A stretch of 64,000 nucleotides of DNA, taken from Candidatus Omnitrophota bacterium. GTDB lineage: Bacteria > Omnitrophota > Gorgyraeia > Gygaellales > Profunditerraquicolaceae. The position numbers were made by a program, and so were the translations under genes. Positions 13,306-21,809 of this stretch are shown in pieces (the stretch's first letter is position 1; every line of letters begins with the position of its first letter). The stretch is taken from positions 679 to 64,678 of the forward strand of contig JBHPGR010000003.1 of the NCBI GenBank assembly GCA_042570405.1, given 5' to 3'. The notes beneath the pieces were generated by a model. It ran no database searches and was not told the origin of the DNA. It was given only the letters and a program-made list of their open reading frames with translations.

Positions 13306-14598
13306 ATGATCGAACGCTATAGCCTACCTGAAATGTCCCGGATCTGGCAGGATGAGTTTAAGTTTAAGACCATGCTGCAGGTGGAGATACTAGCCTTAGA
13401 AGCCCTCGCCAAGCAAAAGAAGGTACCAAGGGAATCCCTGCGCCGCATCAAGAAAAAAGCCCGCTTCAATATCGATAAGATCAAAAAAATAGAAGCCAGG
13501 ACACAACATGATGTAGTGGCTTTTGTCAACTGTGTGGCACAAAATATAGGGTCGGACGCTAAATACCTGCATTTAGGGCTTACCTCTTCAGATATCCTCG
13601 ATACAACACTTGGTGTACAATTAAAGGAAGCCTCTCGTCTATTGCAGGGCTCTTTGCTTAAAGTTTCCAACTTACTAGCCAAGAAAGCCAAAAGATATAA
13701 AGATATGGTTTGTATCGGCCGCACCCACGGCATCCATGCTGAACCCATGACATTCGGCCTGAAGCTTGCGCTCTGGTATGATGAGACAAAGCGCAACCTG
13801 GTCCGTTTGGAGCAGGCAAGGGAGGCGGTTTCAGTCGGTAAGATCTCAGGCGCAGTAGGAACTTATTCAAATATCGATCCCCGGGTCGAACTCTATGTCT
13901 GCGATAAGCTCGGCCTAAAAGCGGCCAGGATCTCAACGCAGGTAATCCAAAGGGATGTCCATGCACAATATCTTACGGCACTGGCGATAATCGGGGCCTC
14001 GCTTGAGAAGTTCGCTACTGAGATCAGGCATCTGCAGAGGACGGAGGTCCTGGAGGTAGAGGAGCCTTTTAGTAAGGGGCAGAAGGGTTCATCGGCAATG
14101 CCCCATAAGCGCAACCCGGTGATCTGCGAGCGTATCTGCGGCCTGAGCCGTATCTTGAGAGCCAATGCTTTAGCGGCTATGGAGAACGTTTCCCTCTGGC
14201 ATGAGCGTGACATCAGTCATTCTTCGGTCGAGCGGGTGATCATCCCTGACTCAACCCTGGCCCTGTACTATATGCTTAATAAATTCATCGAGGTGATCAG
14301 CGGGCTGATGGTTTATCCGGATAATATGTTAAGCAATCTAGTGCGTACGCACGGGTTGATCTTCTCGCAGAGAGTACTTGTGGAGCTGATGAATAAAGGC
14401 CTGCCTCGCGCCAAGGCATATGACCTTGTCCAGGGCTGCGCGATGAAGAGCTGGAAGGAGGGCTCGGATTACAAGAATAACCTCCTGAAGGATAAAAAAG
14501 TCACCCGTTATCTTGAACCCAAAGAAATAGAGAAGATCTTTGACCTGGATTATTATTTGCGCAACACGAATAGGATCTTTAGGAGACTAGGTTTATAG
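13306..14598 (+). CDS. purB: adenylosuccinate lyase
   Basis: 430 aa with the SSAMPHKRNP signature of the fumarate-lyase family and a PurB-type N-terminus MIERYSLPEM. Confidence 0.95.
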   Translation: MIERYSLPEMSRIWQDEFKFKTMLQVEILALEALAKQKKVPRESLRRIKKKARFNIDKIKKIEARTQHDVVAFVNCVAQNIGSDAKYLHLGLTSSDILDTTLGVQLKEASRLLQGSLLKVSNLLAKKAKRYKDMVCIGRTHGIHAEPMTFGLKLALWYDETKRNLVRLEQAREAVSVGKISGAVGTYSNIDPRVELYVCDKLGLKAARISTQVIQRDVHAQYLTALAIIGASLEKFATEIRHLQRTEVLEVEEPFSKGQKGSSAMPHKRNPVICERICGLSRILRANALAAMENVSLWHERDISHSSVERVIIPDSTLALYYMLNKFIEVISGLMVYPDNMLSNLVRTHGLIFSQRVLVELMNKGLPRAKAYDLVQGCAMKSWKEGSDYKNNLLKDKKVTRYLEPKEIEKIFDLDYYLRNTNRIFRRLGL

Positions 14599-14766: not shown

Positions 14767-16986
14767 ATGTCTAGTGATACGGTTGTGATCAACAAAGAGC
14801 TGATTGAAAAAGAAGGCCTGACGATGGAAGAGTATGAGATGATAAAAAAGCGCCTGGGCAGAGAACCAAACTATACAGAGTTAGGGTTGTTCTCGGCGAT
14901 GTGGAGTGAGCATTGTTCCTACAAAAACTCAAAACCGGTGCTTAAGCTTTTTCACACCAAGGGTAAGCAGGTGATCCAGGGCCCGGGTGAAAATTCCGGA
15001 GTAGTGGATATCGGCGGAGGATTGGGTGTTGCTTTTAAGATCGAGTCCCATAATCATCCTTCGGCAGTTGAGCCGTATGAGGCCTCAGCCACCGGAGGGG
15101 GCGGATGCATCCGCGATATCTTTACCATGGGTGCCCGGCCGATCGGGCTCCTGGATTCTTTACGCCTGGGCAGCCTTGACAAGGGGAAGGTGAGATTTTT
15201 GTTGAAGAATATCGCCAAGGGATTCACGGATTATGCTAATGTGGTGGGGATCCCTGTTTTAGCCGGCGAGATATACTTTGATGAATCTTTCGAAGGAAAT
15301 CCCCTGGTGAATGCGATGACGGTAGGGATAGTCAAGAAGAAAGAATTAGTCAGGGCCAGGGCAAGCGGTATAGGCAACCTGGTGTTGATCGTCGGTGGCC
15401 CGACGGGCAGGGATGGGGTAGCAGGAGCAGCTTTTGCTTCCTCAGGCCTGAGCGAGGAGGCCGCCAAAAATAGTTCTGCCGTGGCTATCGGAGACCCGCA
15501 GATGGGACGCATCTTAAGGGAGGCCTGTTTGGAATTGATGCGTAAGAAGCTGGTGATAGGCATGCAGGATATGGGCGCTGCCGGCCTGATCTGTTCTACC
15601 TGCGAGACCTCTTATAAGGCGGGAACAGGGATAGAGGTGGATATCTCCCGCGTTCCGCGCAAGGAAGAGGGGATGAATGCCTATGAAGTGATGCTCTCTG
15701 AATCGCAGGAGCGGATGCTGGTGATCGTCGACAAAAACAAATTAGAGCAGGTAAAGAAGGTTTTGAATAAATGGAAGGTCCCGGTTGACGTTATCGGCAA
15801 GGTCACTGATGACGCAATGGTGCGCGTTAAGGAGGGCTGGAGAGTGGTCGCCGAAGTCCCTGCGGCCGCCTTGGCTGAAGGGCCGGTATATAAGAGGAAG
15901 GCGGCAAGGCCAAAATATCTATCCAGGGTAAATAAGCTTGAGCTGGATAAGATAAAGGAGCCCAAGAACTACAACCGTGCGCTGATCCAACTTTTAAGTC
16001 ATCCTACCATTGCCAGTAAGGCCTGGGTCTCTAAGCACGGAGATCCAAAGGTCGGCAGGGGTATCGTCTTAAGCACCGGTTCCAACGCCGGAGTGGCGGC
16101 TGTACCGGGAACAAAGAAAGCGATCGCGGTGACTACGGATTGTAATTCCGCTTATTGCTATCTTGACCCTTCTAGAGGCGGACAGATCGCCGTAGCTGAG
16201 GCAGCGAGAAACTTAAGCTGTGTCGGCGCTAAGCCTTTAGCGATTACCGACGGGATCAACTTCGGAAACCCCAAGAATCCGGAGGTGTTCTGGCAGTTTA
16301 AGCAGGCAGCCCTGGGTATTACCAAGGCCTGTCGCGCGCTGAATACGCCGGTGGTCAGCGGCAACGTCAGCTTCAACAACGAGAACCCCAAGGGTTCAGT
16401 CGATCCCACGCCAATCGTGGGAATGGTAGGCGTGATCAAGGACAGGTCAAAGGCAGTCGGTCAGTACTTTAAGGCTGCCGGAGATGCGATCATTCTCCTG
16501 GGCAGAAACAAGCAGGAGCTGGGCGGTAGCCAGTATCTGATGACGATCCACGGGTTGAAGAAGGGCCATTGTCCTAGCATCGACCTGAGCCTGGAGAGGC
16601 GCCTGCAGAGGACAGTTTTAGAGGCGATAGAGAAAGGCCTGGTCCGCTCCGCGCACGATTGTTCAGAGGGCGGATTAGCGGTCGCTTTAGCGGAGAGTTC
16701 GATCAGCAACCCGAAGAAGAAATTCGGCGCTGTGGTCGATCTACACTCCAACGGCCTAAGGACTGACGCGCTCCTCTTTGGTGAGACGCAGTCGAGGGTG
16801 ATCTTAAGCGCTAAGCAGAAAAACGTAAAGAGGATATTGCAGCTCGCAAGAAAACACAAGGTTCCGTCCTCTGTGATCGGAAAGACCGGCGGCAGCAGAT
16901 TGACGATCAACCACGTGATAGATGTAGCTGTCAATAAGGCCTATAAGGCCTGGCGCTTCGCAATAGAGAGGAAGCTGGAAGGTTAA
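14767..16986 (+). CDS. purL: phosphoribosylformylglycinamidine synthase subunit PurL (FGAM synthase II)
   Basis: 739 aa. EPNYTELGLFSAMWSEHCSYK, ESHNHPS and duplicated AIR-synthase-like domains. Confidence 0.95.
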   Translation: MSSDTVVINKELIEKEGLTMEEYEMIKKRLGREPNYTELGLFSAMWSEHCSYKNSKPVLKLFHTKGKQVIQGPGENSGVVDIGGGLGVAFKIESHNHPSAVEPYEASATGGGGCIRDIFTMGARPIGLLDSLRLGSLDKGKVRFLLKNIAKGFTDYANVVGIPVLAGEIYFDESFEGNPLVNAMTVGIVKKKELVRARASGIGNLVLIVGGPTGRDGVAGAAFASSGLSEEAAKNSSAVAIGDPQMGRILREACLELMRKKLVIGMQDMGAAGLICSTCETSYKAGTGIEVDISRVPRKEEGMNAYEVMLSESQERMLVIVDKNKLEQVKKVLNKWKVPVDVIGKVTDDAMVRVKEGWRVVAEVPAAALAEGPVYKRKAARPKYLSRVNKLELDKIKEPKNYNRALIQLLSHPTIASKAWVSKHGDPKVGRGIVLSTGSNAGVAAVPGTKKAIAVTTDCNSAYCYLDPSRGGQIAVAEAARNLSCVGAKPLAITDGINFGNPKNPEVFWQFKQAALGITKACRALNTPVVSGNVSFNNENPKGSVDPTPIVGMVGVIKDRSKAVGQYFKAAGDAIILLGRNKQELGGSQYLMTIHGLKKGHCPSIDLSLERRLQRTVLEAIEKGLVRSAHDCSEGGLAVALAESSISNPKKKFGAVVDLHSNGLRTDALLFGETQSRVILSAKQKNVKRILQLARKHKVPSSVIGKTGGSRLTINHVIDVAVNKAYKAWRFAIERKLEG

Positions 16987-17013: not shown

Positions 17014-17670
17014 GTGAGGAAAAAGATCAATTCCAGGAAGGACTTTCTCTCCGCAGAGCCCTGGCGTATTTTCCGCATCATGTCGGAGTTTGTGGAAGGG
17101 TTTGAAGTGCTTTCGCAGGTAGGTAAAGCCGTATCGATATTCGGCTCAAGCCGTTTTAAGCCCGGAAACAAATACTACAAGCTGGCGGAGCAAACAGCCT
17201 ATCTTTTAGCTAAAGACGGTTTCGCGATCATTACCGGCAGCGGTCCTGCTATAATGGAGGCCGCCAACAAGGGCGCAAAGCGCGCAGGCGGCCACTCCAT
17301 CGGTTTAAATATCCAGATACCGATGGAGCAGGAGCCGAATAAATACGTGGGGACCCTGCTGGATTTCCGCTATTTTTTCGTACGCAAGGTGATGTTCGTA
17401 AAATACGCCAAGGCATTTGTGATCATGCCCGGAGGTTACGGTACCCTGGATGAGTTTATGGAAGCGATAAACCTGATCCAGACAGAGAGGATACCCAGGT
17501 TTCCGGTAGTATTATTAGGCAGTAAATACTGGAAGGGTATACTCGATTGGTTCCGGAACACGCTTTTAGAGAAGGGTGCGGTCAGTAGAGAAGACCTGAA
17601 GCTTTTTACGGTCGTAGATCAGCCGAGAGAAGTCCTTCTTGCGATCAAAAAATTCTATAAAAAAACCTGA
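17014..17670 (+). CDS. LOG family / TIGR00730 nucleotide phosphoribohydrolase-like protein
   Basis: GSGPAIMEAANKGA and PGGYGTLDEFMEA motifs. Confidence 0.85.
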   Translation: MRKKINSRKDFLSAEPWRIFRIMSEFVEGFEVLSQVGKAVSIFGSSRFKPGNKYYKLAEQTAYLLAKDGFAIITGSGPAIMEAANKGAKRAGGHSIGLNIQIPMEQEPNKYVGTLLDFRYFFVRKVMFVKYAKAFVIMPGGYGTLDEFMEAINLIQTERIPRFPVVLLGSKYWKGILDWFRNTLLEKGAVSREDLKLFTVVDQPREVLLAIKKFYKKT

Positions 17671-17682
17671 CAGGAGGTCAAG

Positions 17683-19080
17683 ATGAGCGGGATCTTTGGC
17701 GTAGTCTCCAAGGGGGATTGCAGCGAAGACCTGTTTTACGGCACGGATTACCACTCCCACCTGGGAACGCAGTTTGGCGGGCTTGGAGTCTGGACCGCAG
17801 AAGGTCTTATGCGCAAGATCCATGATATAAGGGGGAGTCAATTCAAGGCGAAGTTTTTTGAAGATTATAAGAAGATGAAGGGAAAGGCCGGCATCGGCGT
17901 TATCAGCGCAAACGAGGAGCAGCCGATGTGCGTGAATTCCAAGTTCGGGCCCTTTGCTATCGTCACCAACGGTTTTATTGAGAACGCCCAGACACTGACA
18001 AAAGAGCTTTACAGGCAGGGGCAGTCTTTCAGCGAAGTCACAGACGGAACAGTCAACCTGACCGAACTGGTGGCAAAGCTGATCACTATTGGCGCGACGA
18101 TCGCCGAGGGTATCGAGTATATGTTCTCTAAAATCGAAGGTTCATGCTCTCTTTTGCTTTTGGATAAACAGGGGATCTATGCGGCCAGGGACAGGTACGG
18201 TTATACCCCGCTGGCTGTTGGACAGAGAGGTAAGGATTGGGCGGTGACAGCTGAGACATCTGCCTTCTATAATCTGGGTTTTAAGATCAAGAAATATCTG
18301 CAGCCCGGAGAGATCCTCTTTTTGGATGGAAAGGGCCTAAAGTCCGTACGCCGCGGAGGAAAGACAAATCAGATCTGCTCATTTTTGTGGATCTACACAG
18401 GATTTCCTGCCTCATGCTATGAAGGGATGAATACGGAGTTGGCAAGGGAGAGATGCGGAAAGTGCTTGGCCAAAAATGATTTTATCAAAGCTGATATGGC
18501 AGCAGGCGTTCCGGATTCAGGGACTGCGCATGCGATCGGTTATGCCATGGGAGCGGGGATCCCATTCCGCAGGCCGCTGGTAAAATATACTCCCGGTTTT
18601 GACCGCAGCTACACTCCTCCCTCGCAGGAGACGCGCGACCGGATCGCGAAGATGAAACTGATACCGATCCGGGATATAATCAATGGAAAGAGTATCGTAA
18701 TCTGCGATGACTCCATCGTGCGAGGGACGCAGTTTAAGAGTTTCACCATTCAGAAGCTTAAAGAGTGCGGGGTCAAGGGGATGCATTTAAGGATCGCCTG
18801 TCCGCCGCTGATGTACCCTTGTAAATTTAATTACTCTACGCGCAGCATCCATGAGCTGGCAGCGCGCAAGGGCATAAAGGCGATCGAAGGGAAGGATGTT
18901 AAAGACGTCAGTCAATATATAGATGAAGATTCCGCCAAGCACAAGAAGATGGTGGATTGGATCAGGAAGGACCTGGGCGTTACAACCTTAAAATACCAGA
19001 AGCTTAAAGATATGATTAAGGCGATAGGGTTGGCAAAGGATAAATTATGCCTTTACTGCTGGACCGGGAGGGAGCCTTAA
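17683..19080 (+). CDS. purF: amidophosphoribosyltransferase homolog with a degenerate glutaminase domain (Ser in place of the Cys nucleophile)
   Basis: PRTase motifs GVPDSG and ICDDSIVRGTQ, and Fe-S Cys positions (ICSF.., PCKF, CLYCWTG). N-terminus is MSGIFGV, not MCGI. An in-frame TGA lies 15 nt upstream and AGGAGG is the RBS. Confidence 0.85.
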   Translation: MSGIFGVVSKGDCSEDLFYGTDYHSHLGTQFGGLGVWTAEGLMRKIHDIRGSQFKAKFFEDYKKMKGKAGIGVISANEEQPMCVNSKFGPFAIVTNGFIENAQTLTKELYRQGQSFSEVTDGTVNLTELVAKLITIGATIAEGIEYMFSKIEGSCSLLLLDKQGIYAARDRYGYTPLAVGQRGKDWAVTAETSAFYNLGFKIKKYLQPGEILFLDGKGLKSVRRGGKTNQICSFLWIYTGFPASCYEGMNTELARERCGKCLAKNDFIKADMAAGVPDSGTAHAIGYAMGAGIPFRRPLVKYTPGFDRSYTPPSQETRDRIAKMKLIPIRDIINGKSIVICDDSIVRGTQFKSFTIQKLKECGVKGMHLRIACPPLMYPCKFNYSTRSIHELAARKGIKAIEGKDVKDVSQYIDEDSAKHKKMVDWIRKDLGVTTLKYQKLKDMIKAIGLAKDKLCLYCWTGREP

Positions 19081-20093
19081 TGGGAAAACTTACCTATAAA
19101 GATTCAGGCGTAGACATTAAAAAGGCGACCGCCTTTAAAAAGGATATAAAAGGGGTGGTCAAAAAATCATTTAAGAAGGAGGTCTTAGGAGGGATAGGCG
19201 GCTTCGGCAGCTTTTACAGCTTTCCCAAGGATGAATACAAGGAGCCGATACTGGTCTCTTCCTCCGATGGGGTGGGAACAAAATTAAAGATCGCCTGCCT
19301 GGCCAATAAGCACGATACAGTAGGAATAGATGCTGTAGCGATGAACGTCAATGACATCCTCTGCGTGGGAGCTAAGACTCTCTTCTTTTTAGACTATATA
19401 GCCTACAGCGATCTGGATAACAATATCCTTGTCGATGTGGTCAAAGGGGTAAATGACGGATGCATCCAGGCCGATTGTTCTTTGATCGGAGGGGAGACCG
19501 CCCAGATGCCGGGATTTTACAAGGCAGGTGATTATGATGTGGCGGGTTTCTGCGTAGGCGCGGTAGACCGAAAGGATATTATCGACGGGTCTAAGATTTC
19601 TGCCAAAGATGTCGTCATAGGCCTGGAGTCAAATGGAATACACTCAAACGGCTATTCTTTAGTTAGGAGGGTATTTTCGCAGAGTGAATTAAAACGCATG
19701 AGCAGCGAATTACTTAGGCCTACCCGTATTTACGTTAAGCCGGTTCTGCAGCTTTTACGAAACAACGAGTCAACGAAACAACGAGTCAACGGAATTGCCC
19801 ACATCACAGGCGGCGCTTTTTATGACAAGATCGCCAGGATCCTGCCGGAGGATGTGAATGTCAAAATAGATAAAAGCTCATGGAAGGTGCCCGAGATCTT
19901 CCGGATCATCCAGAAAAAAGGCGATATAGAGGCTAAGGAGATGTATCACACCTTTAATATGGGGGTGGGTATGGTCTTGATCGTCAAGCCAAAATCCGCA
20001 AAGGCGATAATCTCAAGGCTTGCTGAAATGAAGCTTAAATCTTGGGTTATCGGTGAAGTTATAAAGGGCAAGGGTAAAGTAGAGGTCATATAG
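19080..20093 (+). CDS. purM: phosphoribosylformylglycinamidine cyclo-ligase (AIR synthetase)
   Basis: MGKLTYKDSGVDI.., GGFG, DGVGTK and AHITGG. Start set at ATG 19080, overlapping the purF TAA (TAATG), rather than 19047. Confidence 0.9.
   Translation: MGKLTYKDSGVDIKKATAFKKDIKGVVKKSFKKEVLGGIGGFGSFYSFPKDEYKEPILVSSSDGVGTKLKIACLANKHDTVGIDAVAMNVNDILCVGAKTLFFLDYIAYSDLDNNILVDVVKGVNDGCIQADCSLIGGETAQMPGFYKAGDYDVAGFCVGAVDRKDIIDGSKISAKDVVIGLESNGIHSNGYSLVRRVFSQSELKRMSSELLRPTRIYVKPVLQLLRNNESTKQRVNGIAHITGGAFYDKIARILPEDVNVKIDKSSWKVPEIFRIIQKKGDIEAKEMYHTFNMGVGMVLIVKPKSAKAIISRLAEMKLKSWVIGEVIKGKGKVEVI
19757..19788 (+). repeat. perfect 16-nt tandem duplication (ACGAAACAACGAGTCA x2) inside purM
   Basis: Read directly. 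Encodes ..RNNESTKQRVN.. in a loop longer than in remembered PurM sequences. Confidence 0.8.
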
Positions 20094-20519: not shown

Positions 20520-21809
20520 ATGAGAATATTAGTTATCGGATCTGGGGGTAGGGAGCACGCGTTAGTCTGGAAGATCGCGCAGTCGAAGTTGGCTGATAAG
20601 ATCTTTTGCGCGCCCGGCAACGCGGGGATTGCAGAGCTTGCAGAGTGTGTTGATATTAAAGCCGATGATATCCCCCGGCTTCTGGATTTTGCCAGAAGGG
20701 AAAAAATCGATTTGACTGTAGTCGGCCCGGAGATCCCTCTGACCATGGGCATAGTCGATGAATTTACCAAGCGGGGTTTGAAGATATTCGGCCCGAACAA
20801 GAAGGCAGCGCAATTAGAGGGTAGTAAGGTTTTCTCCAAAGAACTGATGGCAAAATATAAAGTGCCCACCGCCGCCTTTAAGATCTTTGATCTGCCTGTT
20901 GAGGCCAATGATTATATTGATAAAATCGGCGCCCCTTGCGTAGTTAAAGCAGATGGTTTAGCAGCCGGCAAAGGCGTAGTGGTAGCAAAGACTGTTGATC
21001 AGGCCAAACAGGCGGTAAATTCGATGATGAAGGATAAGATCTTCGGTGAGGCCGGCAATAGGGTGATCATCGAAGAGTGCCTTGAAGGGGAGGAGGCATC
21101 GATTATCGTATTGACCGATTCAAGGGAGGTCATACCTTTAGCCTCAAGCCAGGATCACAAACGCGTCTTTGATAACGATCAAGGGCCGAATACCGGCGGT
21201 ATGGGTGCTTATTCGCCTGCTCCGGTTGTGAATCCCGGATTATTCAAAGAGATAAATGAGAAAGTAGTAGATCGCACAATCGATGGCCTGGCAAAGGAGG
21301 GCATAGAGTTTAGAGGTGTTTTGTATGCCGGGATCATGATCACCAAAGACGGCCCTAAGGCCCTGGAATTTAATGTCCGCTTCGGGGATCCGGAGACTCA
21401 GGCGATCCTTCCGCGCCTGAAATCAGACCTTTTGGAAGCGATGCTGGCAACCAGTGAAGCTAAATTAGGTAAAGTTGTTAAAGCCGGCGGGCTTAGCTGG
21501 TATGAGCAGGCGTGTGTCTGCGTAGTCTGTGCCTCGGGGGGGTATCCAGGAAGGTATGAGAAGGGTAAGGGAATATCCGGCCTGGACGAGGTATCCAAGA
21601 GTAGAGAGATCGCCGTATTTCACTCCGGGACTAAAAGTGAGGATGATAAGATCGTGACTGCCGGCGGGCGGGTATTGGGTGTGACCGGCTTAGGCGCTTC
21701 TATAAAAGAGGCGATCGATAATACTTATCAGGCGGTAACAAAGATCAGTTTCGAAGGGATGCATTATCGTAAGGACATCGGATATAAAGTATTATCAAGA
21801 CGACAGTAA
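20520..21809 (+). CDS. purD: phosphoribosylamine-glycine ligase
   Basis: MRILVIGSGGREHAL.WK.., ATP-grasp, KADGLAAGKGV. Confidence 0.95.
   Translation: MRILVIGSGGREHALVWKIAQSKLADKIFCAPGNAGIAELAECVDIKADDIPRLLDFARREKIDLTVVGPEIPLTMGIVDEFTKRGLKIFGPNKKAAQLEGSKVFSKELMAKYKVPTAAFKIFDLPVEANDYIDKIGAPCVVKADGLAAGKGVVVAKTVDQAKQAVNSMMKDKIFGEAGNRVIIEECLEGEEASIIVLTDSREVIPLASSQDHKRVFDNDQGPNTGGMGAYSPAPVVNPGLFKEINEKVVDRTIDGLAKEGIEFRGVLYAGIMITKDGPKALEFNVRFGDPETQAILPRLKSDLLEAMLATSEAKLGKVVKAGGLSWYEQACVCVVCASGGYPGRYEKGKGISGLDEVSKSREIAVFHSGTKSEDDKIVTAGGRVLGVTGLGASIKEAIDNTYQAVTKISFEGMHYRKDIGYKVLSRRQ

Follow-up and report, generated by a model that had tools for sequence, protein, structure and literature searches.

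Whether a PurF homologue that lacks the cysteine nucleophile of its glutaminase domain can still serve purine biosynthesis, and with which nitrogen source, is the question raised by a gene of a Candidatus Omnitrophota bacterium (assembly GCA_042570405.1, contig JBHPGR010000003.1). The gene lies at positions 17683-19080 of the window, by which is meant the whole stretch of 64,000 nucleotides analysed here, and encodes a protein hereafter called PurF' or the paralogue. PurF performs the committed, regulated first step of purine synthesis, and in textbooks it is a glutamine amidotransferase. The comparisons made in this study indicate that PurF' is a [4Fe-4S]-type homologue unable to hydrolyse glutamine, which most likely makes phosphoribosylamine from phosphoribosyl pyrophosphate (PRPP) and free ammonia. 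An ammonia-dependent or otherwise re-wired phosphoribosylamine synthase had been proposed in the first-pass annotation of the window; it is now the best-supported reading, on evidence that is comparative throughout.

Residues of the glutamine site and of the phosphoribosyltransferase (PRTase) domain are numbered as in Escherichia coli PurF unless Bacillus subtilis is named, and conservation is given over the 51 rows of the clade to which PurF' belongs in the phylogenetic tree. The features of the gene are the following:

17683..19080, plus strand: the purF' gene, encoding a PurF homologue of 465 amino acids (aa) without the nucleophile cysteine (translation, TIGR01134, alignment to PDB 1gph/1ao0, AlphaFold2 (AF2), Foldseek)
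17672..17677, plus strand: Shine-Dalgarno sequence AGGAGG, with a 5-nt spacer to the ATG (sequence)
17668..17670, plus strand: in-frame TGA, the stop codon of the upstream LOG gene (sequence, list of open reading frames (ORFs))
17683..17700, plus strand: N-terminus MSGIFG, with Ser2 at the position of the Cys1 nucleophile (translation, HMMER alignment)
17746..17760, plus strand: clade motif D22-Y23-H24-S25-H26 in place of the canonical L-Q-H-R-G, Arg26 being replaced by Leu27
17896..17925, plus strand: shortened loop GVISANEEQP, as against the canonical GHVRY(S/A)T...QP, with the equivalents of Arg73/Tyr74 lost
18505..18522, plus strand: pyrophosphate (PPi) loop GVPDSG of the PRTase domain, conserved (D in 47, S in 50 and G in 49 of 51 clade rows)
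18583..18636, plus strand: flexible-loop region, in which K301 and R308, equivalent to Lys326/Arg332, are kept (each in 50 of 51 clade rows)
18703..18732, plus strand: PRPP-binding loop CDDSIVRGTQ, with D343, S344, R347, G348 and T349 nearly invariant in the clade
18373..19068, plus strand: span holding the four cluster-ligand cysteines C232, C380, C456 and C459 (alignment to B. subtilis)

Because the TGA at 17668-17670 is in frame, the N-terminus of PurF' is fixed and cannot be extended. The start proposed earlier (AGGAGG, ATG at 17683, upstream in-frame TGA) can be read directly in the sequence, and the altered glutaminase motifs, the PRTase motifs and the cysteines that had been pointed out are all present in the 465-aa translation. 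They are MSGIFG (residues 1-6), DYHSHLGTQ (22-30), VTNGFIEN (94-101) and VTDGTVNLTE (119-128), followed in the C-terminal part by ICSF (231-234), GVPDSG (275-280), CDDSIVRGTQ (341-350), PCKF (379-382) and CLYCWTG (456-462). Pfam detected class-II glutamine amidotransferase (GATase) domains alone, and the NCBIfam model TIGR01134 matched end to end with 200.2 bits against a cut-off of 350. PurF' falls outside the TIGR01134 definition of PurF in its nucleophile, in its glutamine site and in its score.

The best HMMER match of PurF' among PDB sequences was B. subtilis PurF (1gph/1ao0, E-value 1e-60). In this alignment Ser2 is opposite Cys1, Leu27 is opposite Arg26, and the Arg72-Tyr73 pair of B. 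subtilis is deleted. The cluster ligands of B. subtilis, Cys236, Cys382, Cys437 and Cys440, are matched by C232, C380, C456 and C459, and the D-S-G of the PPi loop, the Lys and Arg of the flexible loop and the DDSIVRGT of the PRPP loop also align with their counterparts. A residue audit, with groups set by the tree rather than by the trait, covered the 51-row clade and 39 diverse clade members. The Cys1 position is held by Ser in 25 rows, Gly in 14, Ala in 3 and Thr in 3, and by Cys in none; position 2 among the 39 diverse members is Ser (17), Gly (13), Thr (3), Ala (2) or Asp (1). Arg26 is replaced by Leu in 40 of the 51 rows, Arg73 by Ser in 44, and Tyr74 by Asp, Ser or Ala; the Asn101 and Asp127 positions are variable, so that Gly102 is the sole glutamine-site residue kept clade-wide. 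The roles in the glutamine site that we take Arg26, Arg73, Tyr74, Asn101/Gly102 and Asp127 to have are those presumed from PurF structures. In the PRTase domain the second Asp of the PRPP loop and its Ser, Arg, Gly and Thr are kept in 47-51 rows and the D-S-G of the PPi loop in 47-50, and each of the Fe-S cysteines is kept in 46-50. The PRPP loop ends in a clade-specific Gln350 as against the canonical Thr, and the channel residues Phe334/Ile335 are replaced by Tyr/Thr. Judged from these residues, the glutaminase of PurF' is predicted to be dead and its PRTase very probably alive, and the protein evidently keeps the [4Fe-4S] type.

An AF2 model built from a 55-row clade alignment had a mean predicted local distance difference test (pLDDT) score of 93.9 and a predicted template modelling (pTM) score of 0.91. 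It predicts, with high confidence, a two-domain fold composed of an N-terminal nucleophile (Ntn)-type domain and a type I PRTase. Foldseek returned template modelling (TM) scores of 0.84-0.86 to the B. subtilis structures 1ao0/1gph, 0.84-0.87 when 6lbp is counted with these two, and 0.79-0.87 across PurF of B. subtilis, Arabidopsis and E. coli.

The former glutaminase domain appears remodelled. Newly conserved residues stand in the alignment at or beside the old pocket positions (D22, Y23, H24, H26, S75, D76, D78, N125 and E128), and among the 39 diverse members D22 is conserved in 33, Y23 in 38, H24 in 31 and H26 in 36. Mean pairwise identity of these members is 37% over residues 1-225, the N-terminal domain, versus 42% over the PRTase core, and by these measures the N-terminal domain is evidently under constraint, with no decay. 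The residues found at position 2 are all small, as methionine aminopeptidase prefers, which suggests that the structure still requires an N-terminus that is free and buried. Two candidates for a substitute nucleophile were rejected: Ser2, as Gly is nearly as common at this position in the clade, and a relocated Cys13, which is kept in 30 of the 39 members, replaced by V, L, I or A in the others, and looks like a buried position. A conserved hydroxyl nucleophile at mature position 1, characteristic of Ser/Thr Ntn hydrolases, is not found in the clade.

The conserved pocket residues D22, Y23, H24, H26, S75, N125 and E128 are also what would be expected if PurF' were an active PRTase with another nitrogen source, either a small donor bound in the remodelled pocket or a glutaminase acting in trans, or with another phosphoribosyl acceptor. 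We consider this unlikely: with Gly at position 2 in many members, there is no Ntn nucleophile for any amide donor.

Another explanation of the Ser2 codon would be an artefact or a decaying pseudogene, that is, a TGC to AGC error or an inactivated duplicate. In its favour there is a single-codon difference at the nucleophile and nothing more, and it is hardly credible given the intact frame, the strong ribosome binding site, the coordinated active-site changes common to the clade, and the constraint on both domains. A word-indexed search gave 8000 scored homologues, of which the top 120 are 73-80% identical to PurF', the named ones being annotated as Candidatus Omnitrophota ‘amidophosphoribosyltransferase’. 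Wherever the start of an Omnitrophota copy was read, the protein begins with MSG. The sequencing error that had been considered possible is ruled out by this conservation together with the several other changes in the active site.

In order to place PurF', a HMMER pass was made over 1.84 billion cluster representatives. It returned a continuum of matches, many having the N-terminus M-[S/G/T/A]-G-[F/I/L]-[F/C]-G followed by a GTDYHSHLG-like motif; named matches of this kind include Muribaculaceae and Bacteroidales. In the tree of 93 full-length matches from this pass, the 51-row clade containing the window protein was split from all Cys-bearing PurFs with a Shimodaira-Hasegawa-like approximate likelihood ratio test (SH-aLRT) value of 99, and none of its members has the cysteine. 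A clade-specific PRPP-loop pattern, counted with one genome per GTDB species and with phyla read from record titles, was matched in at least 599 species, a breadth which further argues against an artefact. The bacterial matches come from Omnitrophota, Planctomycetota, Elusimicrobiota, Desulfobacterota/Syntrophia, Bacteroidales, Spirochaetes, Acidobacteriota, Gemmatimonadota, Verrucomicrobiota, Lentisphaerota (including the cultured Oligosphaera ethanolica DSM 24202) and Clostridia, and the archaeal ones from Methanobacteriota, Thermoplasmatota, Altiarchaeota and Asgard archaea.

Some other sequences of the superfamily deserve mention. At least five further Cys-less lineages lie among the canonical PurFs (P0179, P0181, P0189, P0193, P0195, P0202, P0220 and others); the starts of some of these rows may be mis-called. 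Loss of the nucleophile appears to have happened repeatedly in the PurF superfamily. A search seeded with the lineage P0195 and aimed at crenarchaeal PurF' recovered two uncultured bacterial loci only. Two PurF homologues (L040:9642-11024 in genome G002, and G011:C62:2066-3406) have a propeptide and the Cys nucleophile and score 314-317 bits with TIGR01134; the Arg73 equivalent is absent from their alignment, they share 40% identity with the window protein, and they occur in small genomes without detected purQ. These homologues may be intermediate forms.

The host genome itself encodes a second, canonical PurF. The assembly (1.27 Mb in 66 contigs, 65% complete) contains a PurF beginning with MCGIFG on another contig, C2 (C2:39173-40540), which scores 541.8 bits with TIGR01134 and is about 30% identical to PurF'; the GC content of the window contig and of C2 is 48.9% in both. 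The gene closes a cluster at C2:31537-40540 (locus L005) with the order pyrG - carA - carB (N-terminal half) - purQ - purL - purF. This cluster groups the glutamine-dependent cytidine triphosphate (CTP) synthase, carbamoyl phosphate synthase, formylglycinamidine ribonucleotide (FGAM) synthase and PurF. Its carB is an N-terminal half of 553 aa only, and the C-terminal half was not located in the 65%-complete genome. The earlier assumption that PurF' is presumably the enzyme of the pathway is wrong as stated, since a canonical PurF stands on C2 next to purQ and a second purL. The first-pass annotation had named a canonical copy elsewhere in the genome, together with clustering of the paralogue in a known non-PurF family, as observations that would count against its proposal, and had suggested searching for the former. 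That search found the copy on C2; as to the latter, the tree places PurF' in its own, entirely Cys-less clade inside the PurF superfamily.

A sample of 121 Omnitrophota genomes was classed by PurF content, a canonical PurF being called at a TIGR01134 score at or above the curated 350-bit cut-off. The paralogue is carried by 50 genomes, of which 42 have both forms and 8 the paralogue only; 64 genomes are canonical-only, and 7 are fragmentary or odd. The paralogue-only genomes (G075, G097, G031, G037, G067, G069, G085 and G056) are 89-98% complete and represent six families. In the five of them that were checked, no other match covering the PRTase domain was found, and purD and purH were above cut-off in all five. 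Since PurD needs phosphoribosylamine, PurF' is the only candidate source enzyme in those genomes. One of them, G097 (95% complete, 8 contigs), shares the purB-purL-LOG-purF'-purM..purD operon of the window. In this genome PF00120, the catalytic domain of glutamine synthetase, had no match, and purQ, purS and canonical purF were likewise undetected. A PF00120 match is present in the other four paralogue-only genomes tested, being weak in G075.

The distribution of glutaminase partners follows that of the paralogue. The purQ gene was not found in 7 of 8 paralogue-only genomes, 6 of 42 with both forms and 0 of 64 canonical-only genomes; the corresponding figures for carA are 4 of 8, 8 of 42 and 0 of 64, and purS was found in none of the five paralogue-only genomes tested. 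All genomes without detected purQ, purS or carA carry the paralogue, bar a few that are reduced or fragmentary. The purQ-less carriers of the paralogue belong to eight families, all of which have purQ-bearing members as well, except f9, for which a single genome was sampled. As the paralogue is present in 44% of regular genomes, the rough chance that eight independent losses of purQ all fall on its carriers is about 0.001; this is an informal estimate in which each family counts as one event.

Several points weigh against ammonia-dependent synthesis by PurF'. The literature yielded no experimentally characterised member of the clade and no biochemical evidence for any. The conserved, remodelled N-terminal domain evidently still has a role of some kind. 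The genome-content counts across Omnitrophota are not phylogenetically independent. Furthermore, purQ, purL and purF are clustered, so that one assembly gap in a metagenome-assembled genome (MAG) could remove all of them; that such a gap should recur in eight genomes from different families, of which one is assembled in 8 contigs, is unlikely. Stand-alone class-I GATase ORFs of 186-221 aa occur in genomes lacking PurQ or CarA and could in principle supply ammonia in trans, which would also suit the alternative of another nitrogen source. Finally, canonical PurF coexists with the paralogue in 42 of the 50 Omnitrophota carriers and, in other phyla, in all 4 genomes where a canonical PurF was found.

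The two genes even stand in tandem in three genomes (G119, G095 and G061) and at five loci from MAGs labelled as other phyla (L047, L053, L057, L058 and L081). This frequent and often tandem coexistence indicates that the paralogue and canonical PurF are not simply redundant, and it would be expected if PurF' were a non-catalytic or regulatory partner, forming mixed tetramers with canonical PurF (e.g., for feedback inhibition or oxygen sensitivity) and making no product alone; a conserved N-terminal domain without its catalytic residues would fit such a role as well. This explanation is nevertheless quite improbable, because eight near-complete genomes have no canonical PurF, with purD and purH confirmed in the five checked, because the nearly invariant catalytic residues of the PRTase would be needless in a pure scaffold, and because the canonical gene of the host is on a different contig.

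The genes around purF' in the window bear on the same question. The string of purL, LOG, purF and purM genes recognised in the first-pass annotation was confirmed by Pfam and NCBIfam, which give the gene order purB - purL - LOG - purF' - purM ... purD:

13306..14598, plus strand: purB, the first gene of the string (TIGR00928, 540 bits)
14767..16986, plus strand: the gene for PurL', a small PurL (NF002290, 908 bits)
17014..17670, plus strand: LOG-family gene (TIGR00730) between purL' and purF' (Pfam, NCBIfam)
19047..20093, plus strand: purM, with a 34-nt overlap with the end of purF' (TIGR00878, 418.5 bits)
20520..21809, plus strand: purD, the consumer of phosphoribosylamine (TIGR00877, 570.7 bits)

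PurL' is 48.5% identical to the purQ-linked PurL on host contig C2. A tree of 44 small PurLs was split at SH-aLRT 99 into two clades. One comprises the PurL of the window, the second PurL of genome G016 and every one of the 13 PurLs sampled from genomes without detected purQ; the other comprises all 29 PurLs of purQ-bearing genomes, including the host copy adjoining purQ on C2. Since PurL' belongs to the PurQ-less clade, the string purL'-LOG-purF'-purM evidently pairs two amidotransferases that are both without a working glutaminase, as predicted from their sequences.

The LOG gene is found between purL and purQ or purF' in every purine operon inspected of the host's Omnitrophota family (L028-L031, L044 and L045), and this placement is common to the glutamine-type and the glutaminase-free operons of the family. 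In many class-level relatives the place of the small PurL is taken by one of about 960-1000 aa, whose identity to the window PurL is 33-37%, and a longer, divergent PurQ of about 260-280 aa accompanies it; carriers of the large PurL are the genomes of loci L029-L031 (G119, G095 and G061) and about 45 further genomes.

The paralogue is also associated with an enzyme of pyrimidine nucleotide synthesis that uses free ammonia. Spd_0310 of Streptococcus pneumoniae, a DUF1846 protein now called PyrJ, shows synthetic lethality with pyrG; in purified form it converts uridine triphosphate to CTP with ammonia, not glutamine (bioRxiv 10.1101/2024.09.24.614635). PyrJ/DUF1846 is present in 44 of the 50 paralogue genomes versus 10 of 71 others; this contrast holds within families f1, f3, f4, f8, f21 and f26, and in other phyla the gene was found in 3 of 5 paralogue-bearing genomes versus 1 of 14 control genomes. 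A DUF1846 gene directly adjoins purF' in seven loci. Genome G037 has carB, pyrJ and purF' in a row, and in this genome carA, purQ, purS and canonical purF were all undetected. In the host, a further carB, this one full-length (1065 aa) and sharing 53% identity with the half gene, directly precedes pyrJ (508 aa) at C2:45672-50404, part of which is covered by locus L164. The cultured isolate O. ethanolica DSM 24202 (G121, C1:1045946-1047052) has PurF' and PyrJ, with no TIGR01134 match above cut-off; its second PurF-like ORF, of 626 aa, matches positions 64-397 only of that model, with 134.6 bits, and on account of this ORF the isolate is no clear case of a cultured organism with the paralogue alone.

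Besides DUF1846/PyrJ, the only recurring neighbours of purF' are carB (7 loci) and canonical purF/purM. Outside the family of the window no conserved neighbourhood was found when one was looked for, the adjacent genes being variable (NAD synthase, hexokinase, RecG, a radical SAM protein and peptidase M48), and at 69 of 80 loci of the wider scan none of the tested purine genes lay within the fetched flanks. Directly upstream of purF' in G067, a paralogue-only genome, is a stand-alone NAD synthase of 246 aa without a glutaminase domain (L033:10453-11193), which may be another ammonia-type enzyme. The seven loci with adjacent carB come from several phyla, as might be expected were another nitrogen source or acceptor used by PurF'; however, carA is present elsewhere in 6 of these 7 genomes. 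The adjacency was therefore rejected as a sign of CarA absence, and the linkage is ordinary clustering of nucleotide genes. The requirement of PurD for phosphoribosylamine in paralogue-only genomes and the use of free ammonia by the co-occurring PyrJ likewise argue against another donor or acceptor.

On the preferred reading, in which free ammonia is the substrate, PRPP and Mg2+ would bind to the intact PRTase site of PurF', and ammonia would attack C1 of PRPP to yield phosphoribosylamine and PPi. The Fe-S cluster would have a structural role, as in B. subtilis. The N-terminal domain would be kept for oligomer formation and active-site closure and may also be the entry point: NH3/NH4+ could enter by way of the former glutamine pocket, now remodelled, and of the old channel between the domains. 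With two arginines lost and conserved Asp and His residues gained, an anion-binding pocket would have become one that attracts NH4+. In the host, PurF' would work with the adjacent PurQ-independent PurL' and with the carB2-pyrJ pair elsewhere in the genome, and together these enzymes could form an ammonia-fed alternative to the pyrG-carA-carB-purQ-purL-purF cluster on C2.

A broader reading of the same comparisons is put forward more tentatively. The window operon might be half of a complete parallel glutamine-independent set, consisting of PurF', PurL' without PurQ/PurS, CarB without CarA, and PyrJ, and able to fully replace the glutamine-dependent set. Omnitrophota and many other anaerobes could then assemble both purines and pyrimidines straight from free ammonia. 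The pocket of PurF' might then have been rebuilt, by removal of both arginines and gain of Asp22/His24/His26 and Asp76/Asp78, as a site of ammonium capture and deprotonation feeding the ancestral channel.

If a naturally ammonia-only PurF is indeed widespread, nucleotide synthesis in many anaerobes could run uncoupled from the pool of glutamine. The mechanism implied by the name ‘amidophosphoribosyltransferase’ would then be wrong for thousands of database entries, and the nitrogen wiring in metabolic models of uncultured phyla such as Omnitrophota would have to be changed. Because PurF' co-varies with PyrJ and with the loss of PurQ, PurS and CarA, the ammonia hypothesis can be tested directly with few recombinant proteins. 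New in this study are the genomes with PurF' as sole PurF, the exclusive association of the paralogue with purQ/purS/carA loss, the PurQ-less PurL clade next door, and the tight co-occurrence with PyrJ.

Among known systems, the closest is the B. subtilis [4Fe-4S] PurF (1ao0, 1gph; TIGR01134). PurF' resembles it in fold (TM 0.84-0.86, about 30% identity), PRPP loop, PPi loop, flexible-loop Lys/Arg, four cluster cysteines and setting in a purine operon. PurF' differs in that Cys1 is absent and Arg26, Arg73/Tyr74, Asn101 and Asp127 are replaced or not conserved; its loop around Arg73 is about 8 residues shorter, there is a 5-residue insert before the T-E motif, and Thr is replaced by Gln at the end of the PRPP loop.

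A functional precedent for an ammonia-only PurF is given by E. coli mutants with Cys1 changed to Ser or Ala, which, as the work of Mei and Zalkin (1989) is cited in PMC3261824, lose the glutamine activity and still use ammonia. In these, as in PurF', the nucleophile is replaced, but they are laboratory point mutants with an otherwise intact pocket, whereas the pocket of PurF' has been remodelled naturally and its new residues are conserved.

Brown et al. (2011, PMC3261824) described natural paralogues of this kind: in crenarchaeal PurF' the Cys position is occupied by Ala or Val, and in Methanocorpusculum Mlab_0150 by Ser. Those authors found them in archaea only, only in genomes that also have PurF, and near purF or other pur genes, and hypothesised an ammonia-dependent PRPP aminotransferase for which experimental testing was still required (PMC3261824). 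Compared by description, the window protein is likewise a natural PurF paralogue without the N-terminal Cys beside purine genes. The present clade differs in having S/G/T/A at this position, in being mainly bacterial and very widespread, and in that it can be the sole PurF. No characterisation of a Cys-less PurF' was found in the literature after Brown et al. 2011.

PyrJ follows the same logic, doing independently of glutamine what a glutamine amidotransferase otherwise does in nucleotide synthesis, and it co-occurs with PurF', often in adjacent position. Unlike PurF', it has an unrelated fold (a P-loop ATPase and a deaminase-like domain) rather than a degenerate amidotransferase, and its activity has been shown experimentally. 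The small PurL offers another parallel. In B. subtilis and Thermotoga maritima it reportedly makes FGAM alone in vitro in an ammonia-dependent manner, without PurQ or PurS, and the PurL' clade of the window occurs in genomes in which neither was detected, a counterpart to the loss of glutaminase in PurF'. In that case, however, the glutaminase is a separate subunit that is absent, whereas PurF' keeps a rebuilt glutaminase domain.

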